Below are positions 6,060 to 26,020 of a stretch of DNA of 32,620 nt, in pieces. This DNA comes from a virus (taxonomy: Duplodnaviria; Heunggongvirae; Uroviricota; Caudoviricetes), in IMG/VR virus record IMGVR_UViG_2861048470_000001. The stretch is one strand, 5' to 3'. Position 1 is the first letter of the stretch. Every line of letters starts with the position of its first letter. Under the pieces are notes generated by a model. It worked only from the letters and a program-made list of their open reading frames with translations, ran no database searches and was not told where the DNA came from. Both the position numbers and the translations under genes were made by a program.

Positions 6060-6530
6060 ATGTACAGCCCATTGAACATCGCGAATAAGTTTATAGAACT
6101 TGCTTGCGCGGCTGGTATGCCAATCACCCAGATGCAGGCACAAAAGCTGACCTATATAGCACATGGTATAAATCTGGGTTACAAAGGGACGCCTTTGTTA
6201 ACGACACCAGTTTGTGCATGGCGTTATGGTCCAGTGGTTCCAGTTCTGTATAACTATCTTAAAGTTTATGGCCGTAGTCCCATAACACAACCAATACAAG
6301 TTCCATCGGCAATTTCTCAGGAGTTTGACCCTATGACTGAGCAGTTGCTGCAGAACGTTTATAACGTTTACGGTAAATATACCGCTGAGGATTTATCTGC
6401 TTTCACACATCGTGAAGGTACTCCTTGGAAGCAAGCAATGGATAGTCGTATGGATATCATTCCTGATTCCGTTATTCAGGATTACTATCAAAAGCTGCTA
6501 CACGGCGATAGCAATTGCATCGGACTATGA
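6060..6530 (+). CDS. Panacea-domain (DUF4065, SocA/GepA-like) protein; candidate antitoxin
   Basis: About 156 aa from the ATG at 6060, preceded by AAGGAGG. Sequence KLTYIAHGINLGYKGTPLLTTPVCAWRYGPVVPVLYNYL fits the Panacea pattern as I recall it (K.L.Y.A....G.PL....AW..GPV...Y). AT-rich. Confidence 0.65.
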   Translation: MYSPLNIANKFIELACAAGMPITQMQAQKLTYIAHGINLGYKGTPLLTTPVCAWRYGPVVPVLYNYLKVYGRSPITQPIQVPSAISQEFDPMTEQLLQNVYNVYGKYTAEDLSAFTHREGTPWKQAMDSRMDIIPDSVIQDYYQKLLHGDSNCIGL

Positions 6531-6570: not shown

Positions 6571-7143
6571 ATGCCTGACGATAATAAGAAAGTGACAGCT
6601 GAATTTGATAAAGACCTTCTCAGACGATTGCAGCAAGCTGAGCAGAATCTGATAACTGCCTCTGCGGCTTTGGGAGATGAGGGCTGTTGGGATGAAGAAT
6701 CTCATGAGCCTGAGTCTGTTGAGGACGCTGTTGATGAAATGCAAAAGGAAGAAGAGGATGCTGCGACCATGCAGCGTTTGGATTTATCCAGTCTTAATTT
6801 TCAAATTGCTGAATTGAGTCGCTGTGTTGAAACTATAAGCACTAACCTTGAAAGCGTACAGGCAGAAACCAAAAGAAAAAATGCGGAAACCGACGGCCTG
6901 CTTACGGACAATGAGCTCCGTAGAACTATGGCTGATAAAACATATCAATTCATGATTGTTTGGTGTTGTTTTGTCGGCTGGGTCATATTTATGTATGTAT
7001 TGAAAAAAGATTTTGATCCACCAGAAACAATTATCATTGCGCTTATGGGAACCACAACTGTGAGTATTGTGGGATTGGTTGGGTTTGTTGTTAGTGGTTT
7101 GTTCAAAAGCAACAATAAACCTTCTGGCGACAATAAAAATTAA
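6571..7143 (+). CDS. Acidic coiled-coil protein with two C-terminal transmembrane helices; candidate membrane toxin/effector partner of the Panacea protein
   Basis: 190-aa ORF; N-terminal half charged and helical (LLRRLQQAEQNL..., EEDAATMQRL...); C-terminal hydrophobic stretches YQFMIVWCCFVGWVIFMYVL and IIIALMGTTTVSIVGLVGFVVSGLF. Start uncertain: an internal in-frame ATG (MQRLDL...) has a GAGGA upstream. Confidence 0.6.
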   Translation: MPDDNKKVTAEFDKDLLRRLQQAEQNLITASAALGDEGCWDEESHEPESVEDAVDEMQKEEEDAATMQRLDLSSLNFQIAELSRCVETISTNLESVQAETKRKNAETDGLLTDNELRRTMADKTYQFMIVWCCFVGWVIFMYVLKKDFDPPETIIIALMGTTTVSIVGLVGFVVSGLFKSNNKPSGDNKN

Positions 7144-16770: not shown

Positions 16771-17556
16771 TTATGAGTGATTTTTATTTGATGCTTTGTA
16801 TTCTAAAACCTTCTTATTGGCGTAAAAGAATTTTGTATATGACAGGAATATAACCAGACCTGAAGTGAAATAGACGAGGGATAGTATTAATAATGCTTTT
16901 TTGTGACTGTTATTATCTTTAATCTCCTGGCTTAACCATTCGGAGTCCTCCTCGTTTAGCTGTAAGAGCTTATTGCAGGCGATTTCAGGAAGTGTGTCTT
17001 TTATAAATACGTTTTGCAGTCTCTTGCAATCGGCAAGGCTATAAGTTTTATTAAATTCAACTGCTTTATTTTTGAAGGATAAAAGAACTTTGTCACTATA
17101 AACATAGTACATCATATTTTTATATGGTATGCCTATGGCATCTCTTACTATAGCGGATTGTTTGTTGTGTATATAACATGCGAAGAGAATATAAATAATA
17201 CTGGCCAGAATTACAATTGTTGTTTTAATTATGTGTGGTGGTTTTGTTATGTCACCCCAGATGCGAGTAAGGAAAAAATACGATGTTTTTAGTTTTCCAT
17301 CAATCAGTCCCTGCTGTATCATTCTCACATTTTCAATGCCTGATACATTGATTCCGTTAATTATTTTAAATAGTTGAATGTCGCGCCACTCGCGGTCAAG
17401 TCTTTTTAATTTTTTGTCTGAATATCCAAAATTGAAATAATGTGCAATAAGCCTCATAAGGTTACTTTTACCAAAGCTAAAAAATGCTAATACTGCAAAG
17501 CTACAAAGGAAAAAAACGATTAGCCCCCACACATTAGTCACATTATAGCTGACCAT
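16771..17556 (-). CDS. Accessory membrane protein with three predicted transmembrane helices, unknown function (P2 orf30 position)
   Basis: 261-aa ORF on the strand opposite to the flanking tail genes; strongly AT-rich; hydrophobic segments near residues 9-28, 120-140 and 225-245; no motif I recognise. Confidence 0.65.
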   Translation of the reverse strand: MVSYNVTNVWGLIVFFLCSFAVLAFFSFGKSNLMRLIAHYFNFGYSDKKLKRLDREWRDIQLFKIINGINVSGIENVRMIQQGLIDGKLKTSYFFLTRIWGDITKPPHIIKTTIVILASIIYILFACYIHNKQSAIVRDAIGIPYKNMMYYVYSDKVLLSFKNKAVEFNKTYSLADCKRLQNVFIKDTLPEIACNKLLQLNEEDSEWLSQEIKDNNSHKKALLILSLVYFTSGLVIFLSYTKFFYANKKVLEYKASNKNHS

Positions 17557-20065: not shown

Positions 20066-22315
20066 ATGAGCACAAAATTCAAAACCGTTATCACTACTGC
20101 CGGTGCAGCAAAGCTGGCAGCGGCAACCGCGCCGGGAGGGCGGAAGGTCAACATTACCACGATGGCCGTCGGGGATGGCGGTGGTAAATTGCCTGTCCCG
20201 GATGCCGGACAGACCGGGCTTATCCACGAAGTCTGGCGACATGCGCTGAACAAAATCAGTCAGGACAAACGAAACAGTAATTATATTATCGCAGAGCTGG
20301 TTATTCCGCCGGAGGTGGGCGGTTTCTGGATGCGTGAGCTTGGCCTGTACGATGATGCTGGAACGTTAATTGCCGTGGCGAACATGGCCGAAAGTTATAA
20401 GCCAGCCCTTGCCGAAGGCTCAGGGCGTTCGCAGACCTGCCGCATGGTCATCATCGTCAGCAGTGTGGCCTCAGTGGAGCTGACCATTGACACCACAACG
20501 GTGATGGCAACGCAGGATTACGTTGATGACAAAATTGCAGAACATGAACAGTCACGACGTCACCCTGACGCCTCGCTGACCGCAAAAGGTTTTACTCAGT
20601 TAAGCAGTGCGACCAACAGCACGTCTGAAACACTGGCTGCAACGCCAAAGGCGGTTAAGGCCGCATATGACCTTGCTAACGGGAAATATACCGCACAGGA
20701 CGCTACCACCGCGCGAAAAGGCCTTGTTCAGCTCAGTAGTGCGACTAACAGCACGTCTGAAACGCTCGCCGCAACGCCGAAAGCGGTAAAGGCAGCATAT
20801 GACCTTGCTAACGGGAAATACACTGCACAGGATGCCACAACAGCGCGAAAAGGCCTTGTTCAGCTCAGTAGCGCCACCAACAGCGATTCTGAAACGCTTG
20901 CGGCAACGCCAAAGGCGGTTAAGACAGCATATGACCTTGCTAACGGGAAATACACTGCACAGGATGCCACCACGGCGCGAAAAGGTCTTGTCCAGCTCAG
21001 TAGCGCCACCAACAGTGATTCTGAAACGCAGGCTGCAACGCCAAAGGCGGTGAAGTCTGCCTATGACAATGCTGAAAAACGTCTTCAGAAAGATCAGAAC
21101 GGTGCGGATATCCCTGATAAAGAACGCTTCCTGAGTAACATTAATGTTTACAGCAAAGGTGAAGTGGATAAGAAAAAGGGAATGCGAAAGTATTCGTTTG
21201 CAGCCCCTGCAAATGTCGTTGCCGGGAAGTGGTACCCCGTTATCTTTCGCCGTGCTGCCAGCCTTTCAGGAGAAATGGCATCCCGCGTTGTTATTTCCAC
21301 TGGTTGTTATAACGGCGATTATGTAATGAATAACTGCGAGTTTAATGGCATGGTTATGCCCGGAGGCTGGACTGATCGTGGTTCATATGCGGCAGGTTAT
21401 TTCTGGACGTATCAGACTAATGAGCGTTCAATCCATTCCATTGTTACAAGCCTGAAAGATGATGATGTATGTAGTGTTTTTTATGTTGAAGCCAGAGCTT
21501 TCCCTGTACAAATTCTTGCAGAGGAAGGGCTAACGGTTATTGTTCCGACAGAGGATTATGTCGTCGGTCAAACGACATATAAGTGGGGGGCAACTAATCC
21601 CGCTACAGAAAGCACGAACGCACAGGCTATTCTGGATTTTAAAAATGGACGTGGTTATTACTGTTCACATCCATTTATTTCCAGCCTTTCAGGAAATGCT
21701 GCAACAGCAACGAAGTTAGCGAACGCAAGAAATATTAATGGTGTCAGATTTGATGGCTCTGCCGATATAAATATTAATACACTGGTATCCAGAAACCGTG
21801 TTAATGCATTAGGTGGGAGCGTAAAGGGGACACCAGGTATTCAGATGTATGAGGCATACAACAATGGCTACCCAACAGCCTATGGTAATGTGCTTCATCT
21901 CACTGGCGTAACCGCAGTAGGAGAGGGTGAGTTACTTATTGGCTGGAGTGGAACCAGCGGTGCTCATGCTCCGGCATATATTCGTTCCCGACGAGATACC
22001 ACAGATGCTAACTGGTCTGGATGGGCGCAACTATATACAACTGCTCATAAACCCTCAGCGGGAGATGTTGGTGCATACACCAAAACTGAGTCAGATTCAC
22101 GTTATGTGAGAGACATGCGGCTGGGCGGTGCATCTACATATAAACCAGCAAATAATGGTACTACATGGACGCATCAGGCTCCGTCAGGTTGCGTATATAC
22201 CGGCATTATTGTTCAGGATACCGGCTCAAACTCTGCCGATAACATTGGTGGCGTATATTACAGACCGGTGCAGAAATACATTAACGGGACATGGTATAAC
22301 GTGGCGCAGGTATAA
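20066..22315 (+). CDS. H: Tail fibre protein H
   Basis: 749 aa; conserved N-terminus; internal tandem phage-fibre repeats; divergent, AT-richer C-terminal region. Confidence 0.9.
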   Translation: MSTKFKTVITTAGAAKLAAATAPGGRKVNITTMAVGDGGGKLPVPDAGQTGLIHEVWRHALNKISQDKRNSNYIIAELVIPPEVGGFWMRELGLYDDAGTLIAVANMAESYKPALAEGSGRSQTCRMVIIVSSVASVELTIDTTTVMATQDYVDDKIAEHEQSRRHPDASLTAKGFTQLSSATNSTSETLAATPKAVKAAYDLANGKYTAQDATTARKGLVQLSSATNSTSETLAATPKAVKAAYDLANGKYTAQDATTARKGLVQLSSATNSDSETLAATPKAVKTAYDLANGKYTAQDATTARKGLVQLSSATNSDSETQAATPKAVKSAYDNAEKRLQKDQNGADIPDKERFLSNINVYSKGEVDKKKGMRKYSFAAPANVVAGKWYPVIFRRAASLSGEMASRVVISTGCYNGDYVMNNCEFNGMVMPGGWTDRGSYAAGYFWTYQTNERSIHSIVTSLKDDDVCSVFYVEARAFPVQILAEEGLTVIVPTEDYVVGQTTYKWGATNPATESTNAQAILDFKNGRGYYCSHPFISSLSGNAATATKLANARNINGVRFDGSADININTLVSRNRVNALGGSVKGTPGIQMYEAYNNGYPTAYGNVLHLTGVTAVGEGELLIGWSGTSGAHAPAYIRSRRDTTDANWSGWAQLYTTAHKPSAGDVGAYTKTESDSRYVRDMRLGGASTYKPANNGTTWTHQAPSGCVYTGIIVQDTGSNSADNIGGVYYRPVQKYINGTWYNVAQV
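20585..21076 (+). repeat. Four tandem copies of a 132-bp (44-aa) repeat inside H
   Basis: Units start at 20585, 20717, 20849 and 20981, each encoding KG(L/F)(V/T)QLSSATNS(T/D)SETLAATPKAVKAAYDLANGKYTAQDATTAR; the fourth is truncated and divergent. Copies differ at synonymous sites. Confidence 0.85.
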
Positions 22316-22318
22316 TTT

Positions 22319-22846
22319 ATGCAGCATTTAAAAAATATTACGGCGGGTAATCCAAAAACGGTTGAACAATATCAATTGACAAAGGACTTTGATGTTGTCT
22401 GGTTTTTTTCAGAAGATGGTAAGAACTGGTACGAAGAACAAAAGTATTTTGCTGATGACACGATAAAAATAGCGTACGACAAAGATAATATCATCCACTA
22501 TGTGGAAAAGGATGTGACAGCTATCAGACCGGATGGATTAAGTGTTGTTGAAGTGGCGGATATTACTGCTAACCGACGGGCGGACATTTCAGGGAACTGG
22601 ATGTTTAAGGACGGCAAAGTGATTAAACGCATTTATACGGCAGAGGAATTACAGCAGCAGGCAGAAATTCGGAAAGCCAGACTTCTTGCAGATGCTGAAT
22701 CCGTGATTTTGCCGCTGGAGCGCGCGGTCAGACTGAACATGGCAACAGATGAGGAGCGTAGCCGACTGGAATCATGGGAACGCTACAGCGTTCTGATCAG
22801 TCGTGTGGATCCTGCAAATCCTGAATGGCCGGAAATGCCGCAATAA
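22319..22846 (+). CDS. G: Tail fibre assembly chaperone G
   Basis: 175 aa (MQHLKNI...[11 protein letters not shown]); conserved Tfa C-terminus. Confidence 0.85.
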
Positions 22847-22907
22847 GTTGTATGAACTCTTGTGTGAGCTTACATACCTATAGAACAGAGTAAAGCCTAA
22901 TCTGACA

Positions 22908-22931
22908 GTCCGCTCTGTGCCAGGAGCGGAC
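22908..22931. repeat. Hairpin at the left edge of the Z/fun-locus cargo
   Basis: GTCCGCTC (22908-22915) / GAGCGGAC (22924-22931) with an 8-nt loop and no T-run; overlaps the motifs AATCTGACAGTC and AGTCCGCTCT that recur on the far side of the cargo gene. Confidence 0.5.
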
Positions 22932-23185
22932 ATAACGACACGTTAGTTAGAAATCTCAAGACCAATTAGGTTGGATACTTACATGTATACTATTGCCTAA
23001 CGATACTACCCTATCAACCTCATGGTTTATAGGCGGGGGTGAGAGCCAATCGAACGCTATCGTACGTTTTTATGCTGTCTACCCTAGACCCCAAGTAGAC
23101 ATGAATCTTACCTGATTTCCATACGAGGGCGACGTTGATCATCCAGCTTTAGTGCGAGCACTGAACTTAACATTTACCAGCAATA

Positions 23186-24232
23186 GTGATATTTTCTACA
23201 AAGAAAAATATATGGAATAACGTCATCGCGGGTACAAAAATGACTATAAAAAAAACATATGTAACACCAACAGAAATAGTGAAATATTTTTATGACAAAC
23301 CGGAAAACGATAACGTAAAAGAGAGAAAAACAATTGAGAGCCTGACCCGTCTCAAACCTGAGTGGGAAAATACTCTCGATATGATGAAGTTAATACGCAA
23401 TTGTGAAAAGCTAGCAACTGAAGGTATTTTAATGGAATTATCTTCAGGACATACTCTTTTGGACCGTTGCTATTTCGCACCGAATTTCAATGAATCAGAT
23501 GCGAAATATGGAAAGTATGATTTTATAGCTGATGGATTTGAGTCAATCATAGACCGCCTTAGTCCTTCCGTTTTACCTGTTGTTGTTGAAAAAAGTGATG
23601 GTTCACATGATCTTGGTACTAGTTTTATTGTTGGGAATAACCACACGATATTTACAGCCAGACATGTTATTGAAGACATGAAGAGTATCAGGATACTTAG
23701 AGCTGGTGGTGAGGCTTTACCAATACATAAAATCTTTGTATCTAACGATGAACGTATTGATATCGCTTTAGTTTTCACAACCATTCCGAATGAAGATAAT
23801 ATTCAACCACTTAAGGTCTCAACCAAAGCCTCGGTACTGGATGAAATTTTATCAATAGGATTTCCACCCATTCCAGGATTTGATGCATTAAAGTTATATG
23901 ACGTTTCGCATATAAATTCGTTTGTCCGACTGTCAAAGGGGCGAATTGTTGGTTCTGGTCACTCTTACTTAGATTCACAAGACTTTTTATTATTCAATGC
24001 TAGGGTTAAGGGGGGGAATAGCGGTGGCCCTATAATTAACAAATACGGCTTTGTTGTTGGTATGCTTGTACAAATACCAATATCATCTGAGGACAGTTCA
24101 AAGATTGATAACCTTGGATATGGTATAGCTGTAACAGGAAAAAGCCTGCTGGATGCCATTACATTTACAGAAAATGGCCGCGAATTAACACTCACCGACC
24201 GAGGAAATGGAGAATATTCAACTCTAGCATAA
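23186..24232 (+). CDS. Trypsin-fold (S1-like) serine protease with an N-terminal domain of unknown function; accessory gene at the Z/fun locus
   Basis: ORF with a His-Asp-Ser triad in chymotrypsin order and spacing: TARHV (His), DIALV (Asp), GGNSGGP (Ser). AT-rich. Start is either GTG at 23186 or ATG at 23240. Confidence 0.7.
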   Translation: MIFSTKKNIWNNVIAGTKMTIKKTYVTPTEIVKYFYDKPENDNVKERKTIESLTRLKPEWENTLDMMKLIRNCEKLATEGILMELSSGHTLLDRCYFAPNFNESDAKYGKYDFIADGFESIIDRLSPSVLPVVVEKSDGSHDLGTSFIVGNNHTIFTARHVIEDMKSIRILRAGGEALPIHKIFVSNDERIDIALVFTTIPNEDNIQPLKVSTKASVLDEILSIGFPPIPGFDALKLYDVSHINSFVRLSKGRIVGSGHSYLDSQDFLLFNARVKGGNSGGPIINKYGFVVGMLVQIPISSEDSSKIDNLGYGIAVTGKSLLDAITFTENGRELTLTDRGNGEYSTLA

Positions 24233-24829
24233 ATGATATTATTAATTAAGTTGTACTAACTCAGTTTAAATGAATCAAGCATCCCCGTAACTTTGCCTGA
24301 AAAGGCTCATCGAGGGATGCACATTGTACGGATGTGTGAAAACTAAATCGGCTTTGTCACTTGGATTCGAGGGGAAAACTGAACTGAAAGCGATAAAAAC
24401 GTCTAAAAAATCGTTTCGCAGACAGATGCACCCGATTCAAGCCATTTTGAGGAAGGCTTTCTGCCTTTTATATTTATATTAATCATAAGCTTATTCCATT
24501 GGTGTACGATATCGTGCTTTGCCCCTCATCTCCCAGATAACTAATTAGCCTTAAAATTACTCATGTGTTTCTGCCGGTTAAAATTATATGGTTTTCATTT
24601 ACAATAGTCTCAAGTCCGCTCTTCGCTCAAAGCAGACTGTCAGATTTGATAGCATTTGGGCTATGTAAATTGTCAGGCGGAAAATGAGTGAGTACAAATC
24701 AGGACAGGCGGGCGAATTGCCCGCATTTTCTTTATCTGTTGTTTCATCCCCTGACCAGCCAGGTCAAATAGCGTCTCATGCACTGCCCAACAGAAAATAG
24801 TTGCACCCATTAACCACGGAGTTAAACGG

Positions 24830-26020
24830 ATGAGTGACTATCATCACGGCGTGCAGGTGCTGGAGATTAACGACGGCACCCGCGTCATTTCCACTGTATC
24901 CACTGCCATTGTCGGCATGGTCTGCACGGCCAGCGATGCGGATGCGGAAACCTTCCCCCTCAATAAACCTGTGCTGATTACCAATGTGCAGAGCGCAATT
25001 GCAAAGGCCGGTAAAAAAGGCACGCTGGCGGCATCGTTGCAGGCCATCGCTGACCAGTCAAAACCGGTCACCGTTGTCGTGCGCGTGGAAGACGGCACCG
25101 GCGACGACGAAGAAACGAAACTTGCGCAGACCGTTTCCAATATCATCGGCACCACCGACGAAAACGGTCAGTACACCGGACTGAAAGCCCTGCTGGCGGC
25201 GGAGTCAGTAACCGGTGTTAAACCGCGTATTCTCGGCGTGCCGGGACTGGACACCAAAGAGGTGGCTGTTGCACTGGCATCAGTCTGTCAGAAGCTGCGC
25301 GCTTTCGGGTATATCAGCGCATGGGGCTGTAAAACCATTTCCGAGGTGAAAGCCTACCGCCAGAATTTCAGCCAGCGTGAGCTGATGGTCATCTGGCCGG
25401 ATTTCCTCGCATGGGATACGGTCAGCAGCACCACCGCCACCGCGTATGCCACCGCCCGTGCGCTGGGGCTGCGTGCTAAAATCGACCAGGAGCAGGGCTG
25501 GCATAAAACGTTGTCCAACGTCGGGGTAAATGGTGTTACCGGCATCAGCGCATCTGTATTCTGGGATTTGCAGGAGTTCGGCACCGATGCTGACCTGCTT
25601 AACGAGTCAGGCGTCACTACGCTGATTCGCCGCGACGGTTTCCGCTTCTGGGGTAACCGTACCTGCTCTGATGACCCGCTGTTCCTCTTTGAAAACTATA
25701 CCCGCACCGCGCAGGTGCTGGCCGACACGATGGCTGAGGCGCACATGTGGGCGGTGGACAAGCCCATCACCGCAACGCTGATTCGCGACATCGTTGACGG
25801 CATCAATGCCAAATTTCGTGAGCTGAAAACAAACGGCTATATCGTGGATGCGACCTGCTGGTTCAGCGAAGAATCCAACGATGCGGAAACCCTCAAGGCC
25901 GGAAAACTGTATATCGACTATGACTATACCCCGGTGCCTCCTCTTGAAAACCTGACCCTGCGCCAGCGTATTACCGATAAATACCTGGCAAATCTGGTCA
26001 CTTCGGTTAACAGCAATTAA
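24830..26020 (+). CDS. FI: Contractile tail sheath protein FI
   Basis: 396 aa; P2 gpFI size and position. Confidence 0.9.
   Translation: MSDYHHGVQVLEINDGTRVISTVSTAIVGMVCTASDADAETFPLNKPVLITNVQSAIAKAGKKGTLAASLQAIADQSKPVTVVVRVEDGTGDDEETKLAQTVSNIIGTTDENGQYTGLKALLAAESVTGVKPRILGVPGLDTKEVAVALASVCQKLRAFGYISAWGCKTISEVKAYRQNFSQRELMVIWPDFLAWDTVSSTTATAYATARALGLRAKIDQEQGWHKTLSNVGVNGVTGISASVFWDLQEFGTDADLLNESGVTTLIRRDGFRFWGNRTCSDDPLFLFENYTRTAQVLADTMAEAHMWAVDKPITATLIRDIVDGINAKFRELKTNGYIVDATCWFSEESNDAETLKAGKLYIDYDYTPVPPLENLTLRQRITDKYLANLVTSVNSN

Follow-up and report, generated by a model that had tools for sequence, protein, structure and literature searches.

The 32,620-nucleotide (nt) stretch of viral DNA analyzed here (IMG/VR virus record IMGVR_UViG_2861048470_000001, Caudoviricetes; hereafter, the window) is a P2-like prophage from an enterotoxigenic Escherichia coli (ETEC) lineage, and between its tail-fibre assembly gene G and its sheath gene FI it carries one cargo gene, whose product joins a predicted winged helix to a trypsin-like S1 protease. 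In sum, our data describe a mobile cargo protease that is rare and whose domains are combined in a new way, and it is a reasonable candidate for a minimal, protease-only defence system. By analogy with known systems, the prophage would most likely use it as a one-gene system for superinfection exclusion or abortive infection, and we consider the chances of a role in anti-phage defence to be about even. We base the defence reading on the hotspot in which the gene lies, its mobility, the defence genes next to its relatives, the likeness of the protease domain to known protease effectors, and purifying selection.

The cargo protein is predicted to be a cytoplasmic S1 protease

The open reading frame (ORF) at positions 23186 to 24232 (+) is present and encodes 348 amino acids (aa) counted from its GTG codon; residue numbers below refer to a 330-aa protein with a later start (see below) unless the 348-aa numbering is stated. 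In the latter numbering, the Pfam family Trypsin_2 matched aa 144 to 293 over the full length of its profile (1 to 144) with an E value of 1.8e-17 and 64.8 bits against a cut-off of 27.6, and the family Trypsin matched as well (E = 6.6e-8). The original prediction, made from the sequence alone, had recognized an S1 catalytic triad in the right order and spacing. Indeed, all three motifs were located, TARHV with His160, DIALV with Asp192, and GGNSGGP with Ser279 (348-aa numbering), and the triad residues H142, D174, and S261, together with G259 and G262, were invariant in an alignment of 41 homologues that extended down to 26% identity. N260 was nearly invariant, and the core K-G-G-x-S-G-x-P (consensus KGGNSGGP) was invariant in the same alignment.

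The S1 fold that the original prediction had proposed as a check was recovered as well. An AlphaFold2 model built on the homologue alignment reached a predicted local distance difference test score (pLDDT) of 86.7 and a predicted template modelling score (pTM) of 0.85; a profile search of the PDB with the protease domain found HtrA, DegS, and DegP at E values of about 1e-14, and Foldseek against the PDB returned DegS and DegP at about 1e-13, with about 20% identity over about 220 to 250 alignment columns. The viral structure library BFVD held generic trypsin folds only and no full-length counterpart (query-normalised TM-score of at most 0.51). Judged by its score, the triad with the G-x-S-G-G motif, and the chymotrypsin double β-barrel fold of the model, the cargo protein is an S1 protease of the PA clan.

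The enzymes nearest to the protease domain are of the HtrA type (DegS, DegP, DegQ, MucD). Despite this likeness, the cargo protein is not a member of the HtrA family, because it has neither a PDZ domain nor a signal peptide or membrane anchor and because its scores lie far below the cut-offs of the HtrA-type NCBIfam models (best score, 45.4 bits against a cut-off of 416 for TIGR02037; cut-offs of all 13 models matched, 250 to 800 bits). Pfam gave no PDZ match, and the protease domain is followed by a tail of just 30 aa. Consistent with the original prediction, which had seen no evident secretion signal, neither a signal peptide nor a membrane segment was apparent; the N terminus is hydrophilic, and the highest 19-residue Kyte-Doolittle mean is 1.2. 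The protein is therefore predicted to reside in the cytoplasm.

Within PADLOC v2.0.0 (2023), the defence catalogue that we searched, matches were confined to the protease domain: RT-Protease_XI (7e-13), LmuA-protease (5e-10), HamA-protease (2e-7), and PDC-M35A. At the level of sequence, the domain is thus similar to the effector proteases of retron type XI and of Lamassu and Hachiman variants.

As a separate observation, a loop of the protease domain (aa 212 to 226; positions 23873 to 23917) that follows the nearly invariant motif G-x-P-P-I-x-G-F (consensus GYPPIPGF) is conserved in sequence, although its pLDDT stays under 50. Compared with the one HtrA structure that was aligned (1l1j), the loop seems to be extended, and it is a candidate regulatory, autocleavage, or activation loop.

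A winged helix and a helical linker precede the protease

The first 130 aa had been described in the original prediction as matching nothing recognizable. This no longer holds: the non-protease N terminus measures about 112 aa and is, in the model, a winged helix followed by a helical linker with helices at aa 85 to 90, 92 to 98, and 100 to 110. The best-conserved motif outside the protease, Y-G-x-Y-D-F...G-F, is located in this linker, which leads to the protease; its residues Y90, Y93, G99, and F100 are invariant or nearly so in the homologue alignment. Pfam covered none of the 112-aa N-terminal domain in a scan of 31 family members. A match to CTD12 of ABC-3C systems (Pfam, E = 0.004; aa 5 to 46 of the 348-aa ORF) was rejected; it was under the cut-off, lay mostly inside 18 residues that are probably untranslated, and was gone in the 31-member scan.

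A profile of the 112 aa, searched against 1.84 billion representative proteins, found 153 proteins (about 150 clusters at 50% identity). The full-length matches that were checked (9 of 10) all combined the winged helix with Trypsin_2; one odd match, P0176, is an FG-GAP repeat protein and was spurious. By sequence, the N-terminal module appears to be private to the protease family and not a sensor shuffled among effectors.

The mean net charge of the winged helix is −1.4, its wing has no conserved basic residues, and helix 3 has two positions, 53 and 57, at which about half of the family members carry a basic residue. Since the domain is slightly acidic, its wing is not basic, and only these two positions of helix 3 are partly so, the domain would seem more likely to bind a protein, or to act in regulation only, than to bind DNA in the classical way. 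The same residues bear on another explanation, a self-cleaving transcription regulator of the LexA or CI kind, in which the attached protease would inactivate the winged helix on a signal. A winged helix followed by a serine protease is a domain order that mimics LexA, and the partly basic positions of helix 3 would suit a DNA-binding protein. However, the enzyme has the His-Asp-Ser triad of S1 and not the Ser-Lys dyad of S24, the acidic average and the wing speak against such a regulator, and the homologues have no conserved neighbour gene that could be its target; we consider it very improbable.

Both domains appear to be maintained. Pairwise ratios of nonsynonymous to synonymous substitution rates (dN/dS) among four sequences of 80 to 88% identity were 0.10 to 0.19 for the whole gene, 0.09 to 0.29 for the winged helix, and 0.08 to 0.11 for the protease. 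Because the ratios are low in each, both domains can be taken to be under purifying selection, with the N-terminal one changing roughly twice as fast in most pairs.

Translation almost certainly starts at ATG 23240

The ORF and its stop codon had been placed correctly in the original prediction; the start codon had not. ATG 23240 is almost certainly the true start, giving a protein of 330 aa, 18 codons shorter than the ORF from GTG 23186, since RefSeq, PHROG 18002, and most homologues begin there and since a promoter-like element overlaps the GTG codon. RefSeq labels the gene product an "S1 family peptidase" (WP_000152899.1 / WP_000152898.1), and PHROG 18002 matched aa 1 to 330 with an E value of 4e-235. 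No Shine-Dalgarno-like sequence was seen ahead of GTG 23186. The promoter-like element, found in a consensus scan, is of the sigma-70 type (TTAACA, 17 nt, TG-TATTTT), and the stretch from 23157 to 23199, in which it lies, is the sole upstream stretch conserved (81 to 88% identity) in two homologue loci of ~80% identity, L134 and L135. From the position of the −10 element, the transcription start would fall downstream of GTG 23186.

Table 1. Features of the cargo cassette and its borders (positions in the window)
Feature	Position	Strand	Basis or remark
Left boundary hairpin GTCCGCTCTGTGCCAGGAGCGGAC	22908..22931	.	Homology to other P2-like backbones ends here
Promoter-like element, sigma-70-type	23167..23195	+	Consensus scan; conservation in L134 and L135
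18 extra codons after GTG	23186..23239	+	Probably untranslated
Coding sequence, 330 aa plus stop: winged helix, linker, S1 protease, short C-terminal tail	23240..24232	+	PHROG 18002, RefSeq, AlphaFold2, dN/dS
Predicted winged-helix domain, aa 1 to 82 (three helices, then β-hairpin wing)	23240..23485	+	
Helical linker, aa 83 to 112	23486..23575	+	AlphaFold2 helices; conserved motif
HtrA/DegS-like chymotrypsin-fold protease domain, aa 113 to 300	23576..24139	+	Pfam, PDB profile search, Foldseek
Codon of His142	23663..23665	+	Catalytic triad
Codon of Asp174	23759..23761	+	Catalytic triad
Codon of Ser261	24020..24022	+	Catalytic triad
380-nt non-coding 3' part of cassette	24233..24613	+	Accompanies the gene in all E. 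coli contexts
Terminator-like hairpin	24451..24469		Weak prediction
Right boundary hairpin GTCCGCTCTTCGCTCAAAGCAGAC	24614..24637	.	P2 backbone homology resumes here

The gene is rare, mobile cargo

The gene order of the prophage is gpA, portal ... H, G, the cargo gene, FI, FII ... D, ogr, and the 2.1-kb region around the cargo (22800 to 24900) is 100% identical to E. coli strain 602354. In agreement with the original prediction of a lone AT-rich gene at the Z/fun locus, the cassette holds one gene, whose GC content of 37.1% compares with 44 to 56% for G, H, and FI and with 51.7% for the whole window; such an AT-rich make-up is typical for acquired immunity loci.

Among 5,426 complete E. coli genomes, 41 carry the 1.7-kb cassette, at least 99.6% identical across all of them, and 1,988 match the flanks of the query. 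The cassette occurs in at least four unrelated mobile-element contexts: the G/FI slot of P2-like prophages; a lambdoid prophage, with a transporter cassette on one side of it and hokD/DUF968/rusA/Q on the other; the end of an e14-like element, where it follows pinE, a GIY-YIG gene, an ImmA/IrrE-helix-turn-helix pair, and a BRO-N gene; and a degraded thrW island (tRNA-Thr) with a reverse transcriptase alongside. About 13 of the 41 carriers hold it in the P2-like G/FI slot, out of some 2,700 sites of the G/FI type in E. coli genomes. Given this rarity and the presence of the same cassette in unrelated contexts, the gene is accessory and not a structural or host-range component of P2-like phages, the role that the original prediction had raised against itself. 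Consistent with a phage "moron", the cargo between the same borders differs in P2, Wphi, and P24C9, the GC content deviates (37.6% against 51.7% for the window), and the promoter-like element is conserved. The cassette is such a moron, a self-contained and mobile piece of cargo in which a promoter-like element and one gene lie between two hairpins.

This distribution also bears on the possibility that the phage makes the protease for its own use during infection or induction, degrading host immune or regulatory proteins for counter-defence or host takeover. The gene and the late tail operons run in the same direction, and anti-defence genes are also found in phage variable regions (PMC9122126). 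On the other hand, the gene persists in degraded prophages, islands, and chromosomal sites without phage genes nearby, its promoter-like element is of the sigma-70 type rather than an Ogr-dependent late promoter, and defence genes adjoin it in non-phage islands, so that we hold a counter-defence role to be improbable.

A further feature of the E. coli cassettes is the ~680 nt of non-coding DNA, a 300-nt leader and the 380-nt trailer, that always accompanies the gene. This DNA might encode an antitoxin RNA or peptide, with the protease as the toxin of an addiction (toxin-antitoxin-like) module. A serine-protease toxin with an ATPase antitoxin is known from ietAS (PMC13069673), and copies of the cassette disrupted by insertion sequences (see below) hint at toxicity. 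However, Rfam gave no match over the 2.1-kb region at E ≤ 1, and a comparison of leader and trailer with the ~80%-identical loci revealed no conserved small ORF and no conserved non-coding element besides the 40 nt of the promoter-like stretch; in one of these loci, L136, conservation extends to a further 99 nt that cover the right boundary hairpin and reach into neighbouring sequence resembling the backbone. Around the distant homologues, the flanks are tight and differ from one another. An addiction module would, in addition, overlap with abortive-infection defence instead of excluding it; we give it little credence.

Hairpins mark the borders of the cassette

Homology to P2, Wphi, and P24C9 stops and restarts at two similar 24-nt hairpins (Table 1), the left of which forms a 33-nt inverted repeat with positions 24614 to 24646. 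P24C9 has the same hairpins around different cargo (NUDIX and HAD genes), and in P2 and Wphi they are degenerate; the lambdoid prophage has three of them, which mark off two cassettes in a row, one of them the protease cassette. When the four E. coli contexts are compared, the loop and the inner stem half move with the cassette, the outer stem half varies with the host element, and the breakpoints appear to lie inside the hairpin loops. This pattern of stem and loop exchange is the expected product of crossovers inside the hairpin. The left-hairpin pattern was present in 117 IMG/VR contigs, 51 with P2 G or FI matches (some distant) and 66 with neither. Taken together, the data suggest a hairpin-targeted exchange mechanism for phage cargo genes.

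The hairpin pattern GTCYGCT, 10 nt, AGCRGAC was seen to border cargo cassettes in P2-like, lambdoid, and other prophages, with sites at L001 2328, 6001, and 7707, at L005 397 and 1863, and in the IMG/VR loci L012 to L128. An identity of the hairpins with integron attC sites was set aside, as no integrase is nearby; their stems presumably also lack the attC core-site consensus. Going by the title of their 2004 work on variable P2 loci, Nilsson et al. probably described boundary hairpins already.

Relatives of the gene often lie next to defence genes

A word-indexed search yielded 74 relatives, nearly all of 310 to 360 aa, from Pseudomonas, Nitrospina, Bacteroidota, and many metagenomes. The family is small, yet it spans Proteobacteria, Nitrospinota, and Bacteroidota. 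Homologues of 80 to 82% identity are found in another P2-like prophage, which has a GAPS4 nuclease in its portal-side hotspot; in an island with an FRG-domain protein; and in an island adjoining smpB, as the first cargo gene after the integrase. The distant homologues are solitary genes without a conserved partner gene. Their neighbours include HEPN_AbiU2 and DUF4238 within a P4-like island; from the other hotspot of P2, DUF4238 has been validated as a system of one gene (PMC9122126). Further neighbours of distant homologues are SoFic (E = 2e-46); DRT2 (Drt2; E = 1e-143) with a large SNF2 helicase; an LmuB-like SMC ATPase with a TPR-CHAT protein and a Ser/Thr kinase; and an Old-like ATPase.

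In two unrelated metagenomic or metagenome-assembled loci (L133, 5936 to 8978, and L131, 8001 to 11581), the homologue is directly beside an ATPase of the SMC/AAA_15 type. One of the two ATPases is Old-like (same strand, 89 nt upstream) and the other LmuB-like (opposite strand). In some lineages, the protease may thus act together with an ATPase, although most have no such partner.

The G/FI slot and other cargo of the prophage

Vassallo et al. (2022, PMC9519451) described G/FI as a second defence-enriched locus of P2, with fun and three of their PD systems as its cargo. Our survey of 30 P2-like viral contigs found further kinds of cargo at this position, namely TIR-transmembrane, HNH-effector-like, PDC-S64-like, PDC-S33-like, and split SIR2-like genes.

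The prophage carries further cargo outside this slot. In the other P2 hotspot, between the gpA replication endonuclease and the portal, a SocA/Panacea-domain gene (6060 to 6530, +; Pfam, E = 1.4e-17) is followed by a DUF2975-like gene of 190 aa (6571 to 7143, +); the two resemble a Panacea antitoxin/toxin pair, and PADLOC gave no match for either protein. A third cargo slot lies between the virion-morphogenesis gene S and the baseplate gene V and holds a gene for 261 aa on the opposite strand (16771 to 17556, −; about 32% GC), for which neither Pfam nor PADLOC gave a match. We take its position to be that of P2 orf30. Within the tail-fibre gene H (20066 to 22315), the translation shows four near-identical tandem copies of ~41 aa at about 20570 to 21090 (+), with the pattern …KG-x-xQLSSATNS-x-SET-x-AATPKAVK-x-AYD….

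A model of the cargo protease

We infer the defence function, the logic of latency and activation, the trigger, and the substrate by analogy. In our model, the winged helix and the linker would hold the protease latent and serve as its regulatory or sensing part, analogous to the PDZ gate of DegS, and their ligand would more likely be a protein than DNA. On a cue from an infecting phage, the active protease would then be released or assembled; by cutting a protein that is essential to the host or to the phage, it may end the infection, much as the protease Lit of the e14 prophage does.

A wider proposal joins this function to the borders of the cassette: a self-contained winged-helix/S1 immune protein whose cassette is exchanged by hairpin recombination. 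Here, the winged-helix module would sense a phage protein, and the protease would kill or arrest the cell or destroy the phage protein, with no need for a partner nuclease, an ATPase, or a signalling molecule. Recombination in the conserved 24-nt hairpin would shift the cassette, in an integron-like manner, among P2-like, lambdoid, and e14-like prophages and islands. We put this combination forward tentatively and think it rather less probable than otherwise. The presence of one cassette in four kinds of mobile element, with hairpin-marked borders, bears on how phage defence hotspots are restocked.

Several observations weigh against a defence role. In the profile search described above, the winged-helix domain was never found on other effectors, and therefore, the protein lacks the "swappable sensor" signature that is usual for defence systems. 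The comparison with a defence catalogue that the original prediction had called for bore fruit for the protease domain alone, as no PADLOC model covers the whole protein, and a literature search by accession, family, and domain terms found no report on this protease family. A gene for a metallo-β-lactamase (MBL; Lactamase_B type), the partner of characterised trypsin-like defence proteases, was present neither in the one-gene cassette nor beside any homologue locus inspected. Insertion sequence elements (ISVsa5 or IS3) split the cassette in 3 of the 41 genomes (NZ_CP069677.1, NZ_CP100947.1, and NZ_CP100930.1); the broken copies could mean that the gene is costly or toxic and, just as well, that it is dispensable. 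Furthermore, two homologues stand alone among housekeeping genes, which makes for weak guilt by association, and one Pseudomonas homologue is located just upstream of the hrpL/hrp type III secretion cluster, with a Fic protein alongside.

The last of these loci would also fit a lysogenic-conversion or host-fitness factor unrelated to phages, be it a cytoplasmic quality-control or stress protease, a virulence protease of ETEC or avian pathogenic E. coli (APEC), or a secreted effector. Indeed, many of the carriers are ETEC, APEC, or animal isolates, and the P2 hotspots also bear non-defence cargo such as cytolethal distending toxin (PMC9122126). Against a secreted effector, however, the protein has no signal peptide, and its N terminus is part of a folded winged helix and not a disordered secretion signal. 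Homologues occur in Nitrospina and Bacteroidota, which are not known to have type III secretion. The neighbouring Fic protein matches the defence protein SoFic, and defence genes adjoin the homologues elsewhere. A fitness factor of this kind is, in our judgement, unlikely, and a one-gene defence system remains the role that we favour.

Comparison with known systems

The T5-exclusion gene fun(Z) of P2 occupies the same G/FI slot in the same orientation, likewise as a single gene and with hairpin-type borders (degenerate in P2). A homology of the two proteins was rejected; the best BLASTP segment spans 16 aa (E = 0.009), and Fun has no Pfam domain. Other known proteins share one half of the cargo protein. 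Its N terminus has its fold in common with winged-helix regulators of the MarR/PadR type. With the HtrA family (DegS, DegP, DegQ; MEROPS S1C), the cargo protein shares the triad, the GNSGGP motif, and the closest sequence and fold of the protease domain, and HtrA proteases are kept latent by an attached regulatory domain. Whereas the HtrA family has PDZ domains and periplasmic export, the cargo protein has neither and would use its N-terminal winged helix as the regulatory domain.

The characterised trypsin-like proteases of defence systems are fused to a sensor, and their target, which they cut open, is an MBL pro-nuclease with a gene of its own (Tuck et al., PMC12799240; Huang et al., bioRxiv 10.1101/2025.09.03.673762). 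These Trypsin-MBL modules (HamMAB, Avs2, and Lamassu or DRT variants) resemble our proposal in the use of a trypsin-like S1 protease as an immune effector. However, none of their sensors (HamA, STAND ATPase, prokaryotic Argonaute, LmuA) is fused to the cargo protease, the rest of which is winged helix and linker. The RT-protease of retron type XI has the same single-gene layout with a C-terminal trypsin-like protease (PMC7736814), but the match is limited to positions 340 to 486 of the 506-position profile, and the cargo protein has no reverse transcriptase domain (Pfam RVT) and carries the 112-aa module instead. As for Lamassu, LmuA was matched at profile positions 16 to 174 of 425 only, the cassette has no LmuB ATPase, and an LmuB-like gene adjoins the homologue in just one distant locus, the opposite-strand case above. 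Nor does the cassette encode any other ATPase, a helicase, a reverse transcriptase, or a gasdermin, and no homologue has a gasdermin gene alongside. Since the partners or domains required by Trypsin-MBL, retron XI, and Lamassu systems are absent, the cargo protein belongs to none of them.

The best functional analogy would be Lit of the e14 prophage, a zinc metalloprotease that is likewise a stand-alone, prophage-encoded, cytoplasmic protease and that forms a one-gene abortive-infection system. Lit and the cargo protease have no common fold or sequence. As summarised in a preprint, the T4 capsid protein gp23 switches Lit on, and toxicity results (bioRxiv 10.64898/2026.09.05.749240). Protease-based immunity is well documented, and the characterised trypsin-like cases are part of a multi-part machine; a lone 330-aa regulator plus protease would be the simplest such system and easy to dissect with respect to trigger, substrate, and activation. 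If our model is true, the cargo protease would be an S1-fold counterpart of Lit and a minimal form of protease-based bacterial immunity.

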